Virus record (IMG/VR): IMGVR_UViG_3300023184_000039
Span: 1 to 64,000 of that record
From: a virus
Direction: 5' to 3' (one strand)
DNA length: 64,000 nt
Shown: piece after piece, positions 54,030-57,790 of the stretch
How the letters are laid out: every line of letters begins with the position of its first letter
How positions within the stretch are numbered: the stretch's first letter is position 1
Program-made: the position numbers and the translations under genes
The notes under the pieces: model-generated
Database searches by the model: none
What the model saw: only the letters and a program-made list of their open reading frames with translations
What the model was told of the DNA's origin: nothing

Positions 54030-54575
54030 TCACCTATCTGGGTTGGGTGGAACCTCAACGGAAATATCATTAACCACGGCCGCTGAAATCTCAATTGGAA
54101 CCCAAGCACGAGAGTATGTGTGTTGAGAAATTTTCCTTATTTTGATGAGTGTTCCCTCAAGTAGCAATTCTAGTTCGTCGTGTTTCATGCAAAAAATTCT
54201 TTCAAACTCCGAGGTCGTAATGGCTCCAGAAAACGATAATTTTTTTACTATTCCAGAAAGCCTCTTGGCAACAAGGCTCCCCCGACCACGATTCATTTGG
54301 ACATGAAGCACCATGGCTTGAAGCGCGCCGCAGTCCATGTAGACAACAGGAACGACACCACCAAGTTTTAGTTTGATATGCGGGTTTTGCGATGCCAAAT
54401 AGAATCTTTGATGACCGTCAATTATTTCCCCGGTAGATTTCCTAATCAATAACGGCGAAAGTATTCCATTGTCAAATATTGATGCCGATAAGACCAGTAG
54501 GTCTGGCCGGAGTATGTAGTTTGCTGCCCATTCGGATGGTTTAATTTTGGTAATCTCAACCATTTCAACTTTCAT
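54030..54575 (-). CDS. ParB/Srx N-terminal domain protein (IbrB-like)
   Basis: SI...GI..P+++......EIIDGHQR; +NR.RG; coupled to the PAPS-reductase-family gene. Confidence 0.8.
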   Translation of the reverse strand: MKVEMVEITKIKPSEWAANYILRPDLLVLSASIFDNGILSPLLIRKSTGEIIDGHQRFYLASQNPHIKLKLGGVVPVVYMDCGALQAMVLHVQMNRGRGSLVAKRLSGIVKKLSFSGAITTSEFERIFCMKHDELELLLEGTLIKIRKISQHTYSRAWVPIEISAAVVNDISVEVPPNPDR

Positions 54576-55704
54576 CTAATACAACCTCAATCATTTCTGT
54601 TTGTCTGACTGTGTGCGCTCTTGTCCCTGGGCCTATCGGCGATGCTGATGTCACATTGATTTCATTAAGCAAGAGGTTCCTGATGAGCCAATTAATTGGA
54701 TATGAATGTGGGTCCATGTTGTGTTTACTTCTAAACTGTGAAACAAAAGCTCGCGCACGACGTTGCTTTGTTTCCCCCATTATGAATTCATCTATAAATC
54801 TTCCAGCACCAGAAAAACCTTCAGATGAATACATTGATATCAAACCCTCCACATCAAATTCCGACCACATTCTTCTTTGGGAATCAATTCGTGGATACAC
54901 CTCAACCAACCTGTCATAAAATTCTGGCTCCGTAGCAACGACATCACCTATCCTGCGAATCGCCACAGAATGTAGGGGTATACCAACCCTCGTGTTGCTC
55001 CCAGTGATTGCAGCCAAATCGTAGTACTCGCAATATTCTGCCCCATGTTCTTCCGTAATAAATTTGAGGACATCGTCCATCTGCCAGTCGTAAATAACTT
55101 TTGCAAACCTTAAGGGTATTCCCTTTTTCATTTTGAACGGTATGACAATGTAATTTTCGTGCAACTTCTGCACACACGAGCGATACCGAATCATTGATTC
55201 GTTTGCCCTTACTCCGGTAATAAATGCAACTCGCCCAGTTTTTCCTTGCATTGTGTAGTAGTCAACAGATTCAGGAAGAGCCTTCTCGTGCGTCAATCCA
55301 AAATGGTTTGCATTGATTGCAAAATCCGGCATTGGTCTAATCCACTCACCGGAAAGCCTTCTTCTCTCGCTCCACAGAATTGCCGATTCCCTTCGACCAA
55401 GAATCCATATTTCTGCACCGTACGGGAGGCAGTACCACTCCATGTCAACCCAGTCGTAGTCACGAACCTTCATTACATAGTCAATGACCGTTGGACTCAC
55501 CATTTCCTCGTCACGAAAAATTACCTTTACCGGACCCAGACCGCGTTCTTCGTGAATCTCTTTGGCAAGATATAAAACAGCAGTTGAATCTTTCCCTCCA
55601 GAGAACTGAACACAGACTGTGTCAAATGTGTCGTAAACATGCCTCATTCGTGCGCGAGCCGCATCAACGCATGACATGTCCAGAAACATTCGCTGTCTTG
55701 TCAT
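54565..55704 (-). CDS. PAPS reductase family protein (IbrA / DUF3440-like)
   Basis: AARARM....DTFD..CV.FSGGKDS PP-loop; F.DEE; W.CLP; GVRANES..R; IYDW...DV; RV..P. Confidence 0.85.
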   Translation of the reverse strand: MTRQRMFLDMSCVDAARARMRHVYDTFDTVCVQFSGGKDSTAVLYLAKEIHEERGLGPVKVIFRDEEMVSPTVIDYVMKVRDYDWVDMEWYCLPYGAEIWILGRRESAILWSERRRLSGEWIRPMPDFAINANHFGLTHEKALPESVDYYTMQGKTGRVAFITGVRANESMIRYRSCVQKLHENYIVIPFKMKKGIPLRFAKVIYDWQMDDVLKFITEEHGAEYCEYYDLAAITGSNTRVGIPLHSVAIRRIGDVVATEPEFYDRLVEVYPRIDSQRRMWSEFDVEGLISMYSSEGFSGAGRFIDEFIMGETKQRRARAFVSQFRSKHNMDPHSYPINWLIRNLLLNEINVTSASPIGPGTRAHTVRQTEMIEVVLDES

Positions 55705-55713
55705 TGTTGTTTA

Positions 55714-56481
55714 CTAAACCTCGCAGTGTTCGTCAATAAAATTCATTAGTCGCTCAGATGTTGTGTTCCCATCAATCCCTGGGTCATTGCGCAACCATCT
55801 TACGAAGTTGTACCAACGCGACTGCTGTTCAATATTGTCAAACACAATCGTGTATTGAACAATTGCATTTGCTGACTTTGAGCCAGTTGCAACAGTGCTT
55901 CCTCGTGCTGCTAATTCCTCGTGAGGAATGTCGTCGTTTGCTTCTAGGTCTCCGTCAGAATTAATATCACCAACAGACTTCTTGGCTTCGTTTGTCGTCC
56001 GTATTATTTCTGGGGGAGTGAATGTTGTGCTTGTGGCAAGAGTGCTTTCCTCAATTGAGGATATTTCATGCATTGCCGCCATATCAAATTCATCCCACCC
56101 AAGACCAGCAAACAGTTCTGAGAACTCATCAGAAATTTCTAAAAGGATTTCAGAAAGGATGGAGTCATCGGTTCTTCCGAGTTCAACAGTCTTGTTGTCG
56201 GCAATAGCAAATGCAAGTGCACGCGATTCATTTCCGTCAAAAAATATGCAAGCAATTTCATCCCACCCAAGTTTTTTTGCGGCAAGAAGTTGGTGATTGC
56301 CAGCAATAACGGTTGCCGTTCCATCGTCGTTCTTCCTTGCAACAATGGGCTTTACTTGACCGAACTCATAGTAGGAAGCAACGATTGCATCCACATCGCC
56401 ATGTCGTGGGTTTCTCTCAAGGGCAACAAGTGAGTCAATCGGAACTCTAAGTTGCGATAGGGATTTGTGAATATTTGTCAT
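55714..56481 (-). CDS. ParB N-terminal domain protein
   Basis: NPRHGDVDAIVASY.EFGQVKPIV; VIAGNH.L.AAKKLGW; IADNK. Confidence 0.85.
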   Translation of the reverse strand: MTNIHKSLSQLRVPIDSLVALERNPRHGDVDAIVASYYEFGQVKPIVARKNDDGTATVIAGNHQLLAAKKLGWDEIACIFFDGNESRALAFAIADNKTVELGRTDDSILSEILLEISDEFSELFAGLGWDEFDMAAMHEISSIEESTLATSTTFTPPEIIRTTNEAKKSVGDINSDGDLEANDDIPHEELAARGSTVATGSKSANAIVQYTIVFDNIEQQSRWYNFVRWLRNDPGIDGNTTSERLMNFIDEHCEV

Positions 56482-56816: not shown

Positions 56817-57344
56817 CTAATTGTCCTTCCTTAGAGAATCAAGTATCGTCCAATCTACTTTCTCCAGCGCCGACAAATTCACTTTTGGCCAATCAATTAG
56901 ACTTGTACCCAAATATGTTTTTGCCATTTCTAGAAGTATCCATGCATCGCATTGGTCATCTGCCCCAGGGTTGCGAAATGTGATTCCGGTTTTTGCCGAT
57001 ATTGAAGATACAACCTCATTCTTTGAGGCGTTCCCTCTGCCTGTGGCAAATTTTGCTCGGCAGGTTGGGGGGATTTCAATGAACGGAATATTCATTTTGT
57101 AGAGAACCGTTCTCACAACTCCACCCAATTCACCAATTGAAAATGCTTGACCGCTGCGAGATGCAAAGGAGTAGCCCTCAATTATGACGGCATCAATTTT
57201 TTCCTCTGTTGCCATACTGGACACAACTGAAGATATTAGGTCAAGCCTCTTTACACCTTTTTCCGTAGTTGCAATTATCCCCATTTTGTTATCGCAGCAA
57301 AACCCAGTTGAGACAAGCGACAGGTCAAGGGCCAATAGATTCAC
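56817..57344 (-). CDS. ruvC: RuvC-like Holliday junction resolvase
   Basis: LALDLSL..TG, VIIEGYS, GELGGV, KFATGRGNASK, DDQCDA. Confidence 0.9.
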   Translation of the reverse strand: MNLLALDLSLVSTGFCCDNKMGIIATTEKGVKRLDLISSVVSSMATEEKIDAVIIEGYSFASRSGQAFSIGELGGVVRTVLYKMNIPFIEIPPTCRAKFATGRGNASKNEVVSSISAKTGITFRNPGADDQCDAWILLEMAKTYLGTSLIDWPKVNLSALEKVDWTILDSLRKDN

Positions 57345-57361
57345 AATCAGAGTCTAATGGA

Positions 57362-57409
57362 ATAGACGCAAAAGCCGAGTGAGTCTCCCCACCCGACTTT
57401 TGCGCCTAT
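57362..57409 (-). terminator. 20-bp RNA hairpin (terminator or part of an sRNA)
   Basis: Minus strand ATAGGCGCAAAAGTCGGGTG-gggagact-CACTCGGCTTTTGCGTCTAT; all three non-Watson-Crick positions are G-U on this strand only; no long U-tract follows. Confidence 0.7.
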
Positions 57410-57484
57410 AACGGTCCTAAGGATTATAAGTGTACCTTTAGTGAAAAACATAATAAAGCAAGTATTCAAAATACTAGAGATATA

Positions 57485-57790
57485 TCACTGTTCCCAACCA
57501 TGCTTCGCTAATCCCAAATCAAAAGCAAGTTGTGGGTAGTTTCCGATGCGTGTATGGCATTTTCTGCACACGGCAATAACATTCTCTTCGTCCAGAATTG
57601 AGCCACCCTGTGAGCGTCGCTTGAGTTCGTGTACATCGCGTGATGGTTGTTGCACATAGGTGACAAGACCATCGTGTTTGGCAAACACAGGACAGGCAAC
57701 GCAGTAAGGAAACCTTTCCAGAATGTCCTTTACGAAAGGTCTACGCAATTCGTACTCTGCTTCTTTTTTTGCGCTTCTTTTTCTAATCAC
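57485..57790 (-). CDS. HNH endonuclease
   Basis: CVAC...DVHE...RSQGG.......N...VCRKCH. Confidence 0.85.
   Translation of the reverse strand: MIRKRSAKKEAEYELRRPFVKDILERFPYCVACPVFAKHDGLVTYVQQPSRDVHELKRRSQGGSILDEENVIAVCRKCHTRIGNYPQLAFDLGLAKHGWEQ

Follow-up and report, generated by a model that had tools for sequence, protein, structure and literature searches.

What is a piece of 23S rRNA sequence doing between two genes of a phage? We analysed the first 64 kb (hereafter the window) of a 140,645-bp IMG/VR virus record that is rated complete by CheckV and comes from an uncultured lake phage of 140 kb. The plus strand at 57406-57422 reads CTATAACGGTCCTAAGG, which is identical to positions 1914-1930 of E. 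coli 23S rRNA (rrlB). The matched rRNA segment takes in the 3' half of the loop of helix 69 (H69), continues along the 3' strand of the helix and reaches into the H69-H70 junction. The original prediction had singled out this match to H69, and the identity to E. coli 1914-1930 bears it out. It had offered two readings: a small RNA composed of a promoter, a seed and a hairpin, or a decoy target for a nuclease. On the comparative evidence presented below, we consider it probable (about 0.6) that the minus strand encodes a trans-acting sRNA of ~65 nt whose 5' end pairs with 23S 1914-1930.

The ORFs that neighbor the element all lie on the minus strand and an HNH gene adjoins it, as had been stated; the latter assignment is backed by a match to PF01844. 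In the direction of transcription, the genes encode a large terminase (3 kb from the element), an unknown protein, a Rad52-like annealase, a PD-(D/E)XK exonuclease, a second unknown and the 101-aa HNH protein. These are followed by a spacer of 140 nt and then by genes for a 175-aa RuvC-like resolvase, an unknown, a ParB, a PAPS-reductase-like protein and another ParB. The RuvC-like protein belongs to an ordinary Rad52/exonuclease/resolvase recombination module. Downstream of this module, the trio of ParB-like, PAPS-reductase-like and ParB-like genes (54030-56481, minus strand) is conserved clade-wide, and we take it to be a pairing of the IbrA/IbrB type. The features of the spacer and its two flanking genes are as follows.

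57485..57790, minus strand: HNH endonuclease, 101 aa, upstream of the RNA element (Pfam PF01844, E = 1.1e-4, 22.7 bits, cut-off 21.4)
57429..57434, minus strand: predicted -10 box TACACT (TAnnnT); T, A and last T unchanged in all 33 distinct relatives aligned
57423-57428, minus strand: second hexamer, TATAAT, adjoining the antisense 17-mer; not kept as a -10 box in relatives
57406..57422, minus strand: seed CCUUAGGACCGUUAUAG, exact complement of 23S 1914-1930 (sequence match, conservation)
57362..57409, minus strand: terminator-like stem-loop of 22 bp (folding and covariation)
56817..57344, minus strand: RuvC-like resolvase, 175 aa, downstream of the hairpin (Pfam PF02075, E = 4e-5)

The number of exact 17-mer matches to 23S rRNA that is expected by chance is 2 x 64000 x 2888 / 4^17 = 0.02 for the window, which reproduces the earlier estimate of about 0.02, and ~0.05 for the genome. 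The genome does contain a second exact 17-mer, TGGTGCCGTAACTTCGG (E. coli 1680-1696), at 97134-97150 on the plus strand and outside the window (L234:1635-1651). This second match sits in the variable part of a 146-aa ORF and is kept in none of four relatives; being coding and not conserved, it was rejected as a functional site and attributed to chance. It serves as an internal control: because the same genome holds an unconserved 23S 17-mer, the raw match at 57406 is not significant by itself. Its conservation is.

The spacer element and its conservation among relatives

Read on the minus strand, the spacer consists of GGTACACTTATAAT, CCUUAGGACCGUUAUAG and the hairpin, in this order. The 17-mer is single-copy in the 140,645-bp genome even when up to 4 mismatches are permitted. 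The hairpin has 22 bp with four G.U pairs, and its conserved core of 16 bp is formed by 57390-57405 and 57366-57381. It folds with -36 to -38 kcal/mol on the minus strand (z = -7.4) compared to -21.6 on the plus strand, where the G.U pairs turn into A.C mismatches. The original prediction of a stem whose G-U pairs exist on one strand only was therefore right in kind, but its counts (20 bp, three G-U) were not. In the predicted fold, nucleotides 1-13 of the seed have a mean unpaired probability of 0.72. No U-tract follows the hairpin in the window copy, where the tail reads CUAUUCCAUU, and no match to a -35 element was found upstream of TACACT.

To follow the element in other viruses, we scanned IMG/VR for the exact 17-mer and obtained at least 118 contigs. 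Among the matches listed, one is a true 23S gene and nearly all others have the 17-mer beside a hairpin of variable sequence; ~85 of the contigs listed are syntenic with the window, and in these the element always lies between HNH and RuvC. The neighboring proteins of these syntenic relatives are down to 36-60% identical. We aligned 33 distinct copies. Since these were chosen by the exact 17-mer, invariance of the seed in this alignment follows from the choice of sequences; apart from the seed, the columns without variation are a few stem bases and, in TAnnnT, the T, the A and the last T. The spacing from TAnnnT to the seed is 6 nt, except in two of the 33 copies, where it is 7 nt. Both -10-like hexamers that had been reported are present, TACACT at 57434-57429 and TATAAT at 57428-57423, but only the first is conserved: the position of TATAAT in relatives reads GGAATT, AGAGAG or TAATTG. 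With TACACT as the -10 box, the predicted start of transcription is base 1 or 2 of the 17-mer.

All 527 cells of the 16-bp stem are paired in the alignment (RNAalifold and a direct count of pairs). Compensatory changes were found in 10 of the 16 stem pairs, and none of 500 shuffles was as good. About a fifth of the stem cells are G.U, and the closing pair is G.U in 33/33 copies. Full pairing, compensatory pairs and G.U pairs, the closing one included, together indicate that the hairpin is selected as an RNA of the minus strand.

For a sample in which the seed was free to vary, we drew relatives by terminase alone and considered the 53 that keep both HNH and RuvC. The element was present in 26 of these, and the 16-nt core was exact in 22 of the 26. 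Twelve carry the exact 17-mer, ten are changed at nucleotide 1 only (U or A) and four read CCUUAGGAUCGUUACAG, which has two changes relative to the seed, one of them keeping a G.U pair with G1922. Among the 12 distinct sequences from this sample, nucleotides 2-17 are invariant in 11; nucleotide 1 varies between C, U and A. The predicted start of transcription thus coincides with the sole variable position of the 17-mer. These data point to the 16-mer CUUAGGACCGUUAUAG, complementary to 23S 1914-1929, as the functional core. The sRNA reading holds up in this comparison: the 16-17-mer is fixed while its flanks and the hairpin diverge and covary. A start downstream of the complementary segment had been named as evidence that would speak against it, and the conserved -10 box puts the predicted start at the first base of that segment.

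The remaining 27 of the 53 relatives have no element; between HNH and RuvC they have either 9-28 nt or other inserts. When presence was mapped onto the TerL tree, two changes sufficed, for example one gain and one loss. As only two changes are needed, the element is a vertically inherited accessory gene.

The spacer of some relatives holds further elements. A second structured RNA of ~150-200 nt occurs in the same HNH-RuvC spacer in L135 (11217-11577), L148, L165, L173 and L167, with conserved GGTGGTC...CCACGGCA motifs and a terminator of its own, and with or without the anti-23S RNA alongside. The window does not contain this second RNA, for which Rfam gave no match. In L187 (11266-11886) and L191 (8809-9418), an extra small ORF in the spacer is followed by UACCUUAGGAGUCAC and a hairpin; these copies may be a diverged form of the element with a shorter seed, ~10 nt antisense to 23S 1923-1932.

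The strongest alternative to an sRNA acting in trans is that the element is a cis-acting part of the HNH-RuvC mRNA, as the 3' UTR of HNH or the leader of RuvC, where it would tether or position ribosomes or give rise to a short RNA by processing. The arrangement in the window lends itself to this idea. The hairpin is without a U-tract, and the GTG start of RuvC lies ~18 nt past it; as this leaves no room for a promoter of its own, RuvC is probably expressed by read-through of the hairpin. The close, operon-like apposition of the two genes in relatives without the element fits as well, as does the finding that in L008 and L004 the -10-like box starts directly after the HNH stop codon. On the other hand, TAnnnT is invariant and fixed in its spacing, like a promoter. 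A U-rich tail, as in a terminator, follows the stem in 14 of the 33 relatives, many relatives have 200-300 nt plus another RNA before RuvC, and the neighboring genes in other phage groups are quite different. We therefore consider the cis-acting explanation unlikely.

Recurrence of the antisense stretch in unrelated phages

The remaining viral contigs and a metagenome scan yielded at least four further phage groups that have no detectable proteins in common with the window. They carry the same antisense stretch in the same orientation before a terminator, on different scaffolds.

Group 1: TATACT box, small GAAA-capped 5' hairpin, seed, long covarying terminator with U-tract
Group 2: 5' hairpin, seed, spacer, terminator with seven U
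Group 3: 5' hairpin, 23-nt complementarity, terminator
Group 4 (AT-rich phages): three hairpins; seed partly paired; invariant UCGCUAC in the loop of a covarying terminator

The UCGCUAC of Group 4 is complementary to 23S 1930-1936, and the three-hairpin scaffold (L249, L282, L288, L297 and 12 more metagenome loci, alignment A3) thus presents two complementary stretches, in swapped order relative to 23S rRNA. Where complementarity continues past the 17-mer, it tracks 23S rRNA: it extends to 23 nt in L069 and to 28 nt with one mismatch in L062. Extensions of this kind would be very hard to explain unless 23S rRNA is the reference.

Matches of another kind occur in other large phages (L027:10982-10998, L066, L104, L002, L006), where 22-25 nt of 23S sequence lie inside tRNA arrays in the same orientation as the tRNAs, so that the sense strand would be transcribed, and show no strong fold. 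One of these, the 25-nt match in L002 (2624-2640), is co-oriented with tRNA genes and its sense strand may be transcribed; it was excluded from the support for an antisense RNA.

Searches beyond viral contigs gave no counterpart. Among 185,579 species-representative genomes, none matched the seed followed by RYGC, the start of the hairpin in this family. When the next base was only required to differ from the T of 23S rRNA, the same genomes gave 34 matches. Most of these were variant 23S genes, 23S genes interrupted right here by an insertion, or a protein gene of Prevotella/Bacteroides; the seed-plus-hairpin pattern was in none of the 34 (short MAG contigs L204 and L205 aside). The protein gene is a conserved Bacteroidales coding gene that contains the 16-mer in a ..YNGPKCG.. 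frame (L203, L206, L207, L211-L213, L222, L223, L227, L228), and in Myxococcus 23S genes (L224, L231) the insertion begins directly beside the 16-mer. Rfam returned 0 matches at the gathering score for the whole window and sub-threshold chance matches only in a local search of 57250-57550 (E <= 10). In a body of 8.4 million papers, keyword and exact-sequence searches retrieved primers, probes and I-CeuI sites only, and no phage RNA.

A nucleotide search of the isolated phages in INPHARED with 1.5 kb around the site gave no match. The nearest isolates by terminase protein are Gordonia phages at ~42% identity; there is accordingly no cultured model, and the host is likely actinobacterial.

A protein could in principle be the agent, with the 16-17 nt leading a nuclease, methyltransferase or other protein of phage or host to the 23S rRNA or its gene, which it would cut or modify. 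An invariant 16-nt stretch beside a structured handle is laid out like a guide RNA, and nucleases are at hand: genes for HNH and RuvC-type nucleases flank the element, and a homologue of staphylococcal nuclease adjoins it in another group. Elsewhere the neighbors are a ribonucleotide reductase, a lysozyme or unknowns, and no protein is common to the neighborhoods of the different groups. As the neighboring genes differ in this way, the RNA is not accompanied by a conserved protein partner. From group to group the hairpin handle changes completely, in shape as well as in sequence, which speaks against a dedicated protein. Moreover, HNH and RuvC persist in relatives without the RNA, and for this reason HNH is probably context and not a partner of the RNA. 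The RuvC-like protein, at 175 aa, sits in its ordinary recombination module, and no RNase III gene was found in the phage genome. We regard guidance of a protein as quite unlikely.

The element might also act as DNA: as an att site within 23S, as a homing target of the I-CeuI type or a decoy for one, as a cos or pac site, or as the promoter of a single-subunit RNA polymerase. The 17-mer is indeed the core of the I-CeuI site, with HNH adjacent and the terminase 3 kb away; the record is a circular map whose ends were introduced by the assembly; and TATAG-G followed by a 5' hairpin recalls promoters of the T7 type (SP6/T7). Against this, pairing by G.U on one strand only and compensatory changes are marks of selection on one RNA strand, and four unrelated groups share one orientation to the terminator. 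The absence of the element from about half of the clade indicates that it is not an essential packaging or replication site. The null result for the seed joined to a phage-side hairpin in the 185,579 species genomes means that there are no lysogen junctions, and the presence of a single copy per genome is unlike the promoters of phage RNA polymerases. We consider any role as a DNA site very unlikely.

Three candidates of this class were rejected individually. An attP core in the 23S gene was discarded as there were no hybrid junctions and no integrase among the ten neighboring genes scanned. A T7/SP6-type promoter was discarded because the sequence is single-copy with <=4 mismatches; a search of the genome for a T7-like RNA polymerase (PF00940) found none, and its control gave no signal either. 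A homing target of the I-CeuI type was discarded on the strand-specific G.U pairs, the fixed orientation to the terminator and the presence of HNH without the site in 27/53 relatives. The nuclease decoy or HNH cleavage site of the original prediction fares no better and is not supported: the constraint is on the minus-strand RNA, unrelated phages carry the stretch beside genes other than HNH, and about half of the clade has HNH without the element. An sRNA antisense to H69, on the other hand, is supported by the sequence comparisons.

Finally, the chance occurrence of a 17-mer beside an ordinary terminator, for which the expected numbers per window and genome and the one clear chance match at 97134 might be cited, is almost certainly wrong given a stretch that does not vary over >100 viral contigs, is found again in unrelated phages and has extensions that follow 23S rRNA.

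Possible action on the ribosome and comparison with known systems

For the preferred reading, an sRNA acting in trans, we propose the following course of events. Host RNA polymerase would start at the -10-only promoter TACACT, at or within one base of CCUUAGGACCGUUAUAG, and the transcript would end in the long stem-loop with its G.U pairs, or partly read through it, to give an RNA of ~65 nt. Its 5' end would be mostly unpaired and under selection for perfect complementarity to 23S 1914-1930. This RNA would pair in trans wherever the target is accessible. Free 50S subunits are one possible place, late pre-50S particles with H68-H71 unfolded the more likely one, and the consequence during infection would be impaired subunit joining or impaired 50S maturation. 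Alternatively, the 23S rRNA might be marked for cleavage and its nucleotides recycled. We infer each of these steps, from transcription and the RNA ends to 23S binding and the physiological effect, from sequence and structure.

The structure of the ribosome sets limits on such pairing. H69 forms bridge B2a and contacts the decoding site, and the target region functions in this bridge, in decoding and in contacts made during recycling. In the mature 70S ribosome, H69 itself holds 1919-1924 in base pairs and B2a occupies the loop, so that pairing would need a free or immature 50S subunit. Since the H68-H71 block is one of the last to fold as the 50S subunit matures, access to the target stretch is to be expected on free 50S and particularly in late intermediates. 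A value of -28 kcal/mol was calculated for the duplex of seed and 23S rRNA. Compared to the separate folds, the cofold with a 23S fragment is more stable by ~16 kcal/mol, enough in this model to open the short H69 stem.

No 10-mer from the target word is found a second time in the phage genome, which thus offers no other site of >=10 nt for seed pairing, and phage mRNAs are not near-perfect targets. Words from the 23S-sense 17-mer are rarer in the genome than expected (3 vs 9.7 for 9-mers, 0 vs 2.1 for 10-mers); this could reflect avoidance of self-targets or mere base composition.

Several points count against an sRNA of this kind. Ribosomal RNA vastly outnumbers a typical sRNA; to act stoichiometrically, the RNA would have to be highly expressed, unless a catalytic step is involved. 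The phage itself needs working ribosomes, and about half of the clade manages without the element. The window copy has neither a -35 element nor a U-tract, and RuvC begins shortly downstream. Given these last two features, the RNA may be mainly part of a longer HNH-RuvC mRNA, or may arise by partial termination or processing.

Phages are known to take over translation by means of proteins (S21 homologues, ribosome-binding proteins, nucleases) and of tRNA sets. A scan for tRNA and tmRNA found none. In the genome analysed here we found no gene for ribosomal protein S21, and a partner RNA directed against the 16S tail was absent. On one scaffold or another, the anti-H69 stretch is present in hundreds of aquatic phage contigs. 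We tentatively suggest, as a possibility that is less likely than not, that unrelated lineages have independently evolved or have exchanged RNAs that seize 23S H69-H70 and trap pre-50S or 50S particles or mark 23S rRNA for cleavage. If this is true, trapping late pre-50S or free 50S would reset ribosome production or subunit joining in favor of the phage, and this would be the first case of a virus that attacks bacterial rRNA by means of an RNA. An RNA perfectly complementary to a central and highly conserved piece of 23S rRNA would represent a new mode of interaction between virus and host. Because the target is universal, the RNA could be tried in any model bacterium and, should it work, would provide a compact natural means to block 50S assembly or subunit joining.

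How does the element compare with systems already described? The I-CeuI site in 23S rDNA has the same 17-bp core (PMC2790883). In contrast to that site, the phage element is constrained as an antisense RNA and lies in phages, outside rDNA, with no intron or LAGLIDADG gene, and it is missing in half of the clade. The antisense pairs CopA/CopT of R1 and RNA I/RNA II of ColE1 have complementary bases partly in loops, as does the three-hairpin scaffold of the other phages. The seed in the window differs in being linear and 5', not in a loop, and it would act in trans on a host rRNA, where those antisense RNAs target a replication RNA encoded in cis.

H69 carries pseudouridines at 1911, 1915 and 1917, and bacteria make H69 modifications by stand-alone enzymes (RluD, RlmH). 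The C/D and H/ACA guides of archaea and eukaryotes (PMC4644070, PMC2377435) resemble the phage RNA in being small RNAs with conserved rRNA-antisense stretches. The phage RNA is distinguished from them by having neither those boxes nor a pseudouridylation pocket nor a match in Rfam.

The closest likeness in layout is to sRNAs of the RybB, OmrA/B and MicC type, which have their own promoter (predicted for the phage RNA), a single-stranded 5' end of ~16 nt and a terminator-like hairpin, and in which the seed is far more conserved than the remainder. To our knowledge, Actinobacteria, the likely host phylum, are without Hfq, and the bacterial and phage sRNAs that we know of pair with mRNAs. Unlike RNAs of the RybB type, the copy in the window is without a U-tract, and the phage RNA has 16-17 nt of perfect complementarity instead of a seed of 7-10 nt. 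Its partner would be 23S rRNA and not an mRNA. The element is thus best described, on the comparisons made here, as a candidate antisense RNA of the seed-plus-terminator kind with an unprecedented partner, the 23S rRNA of the host.
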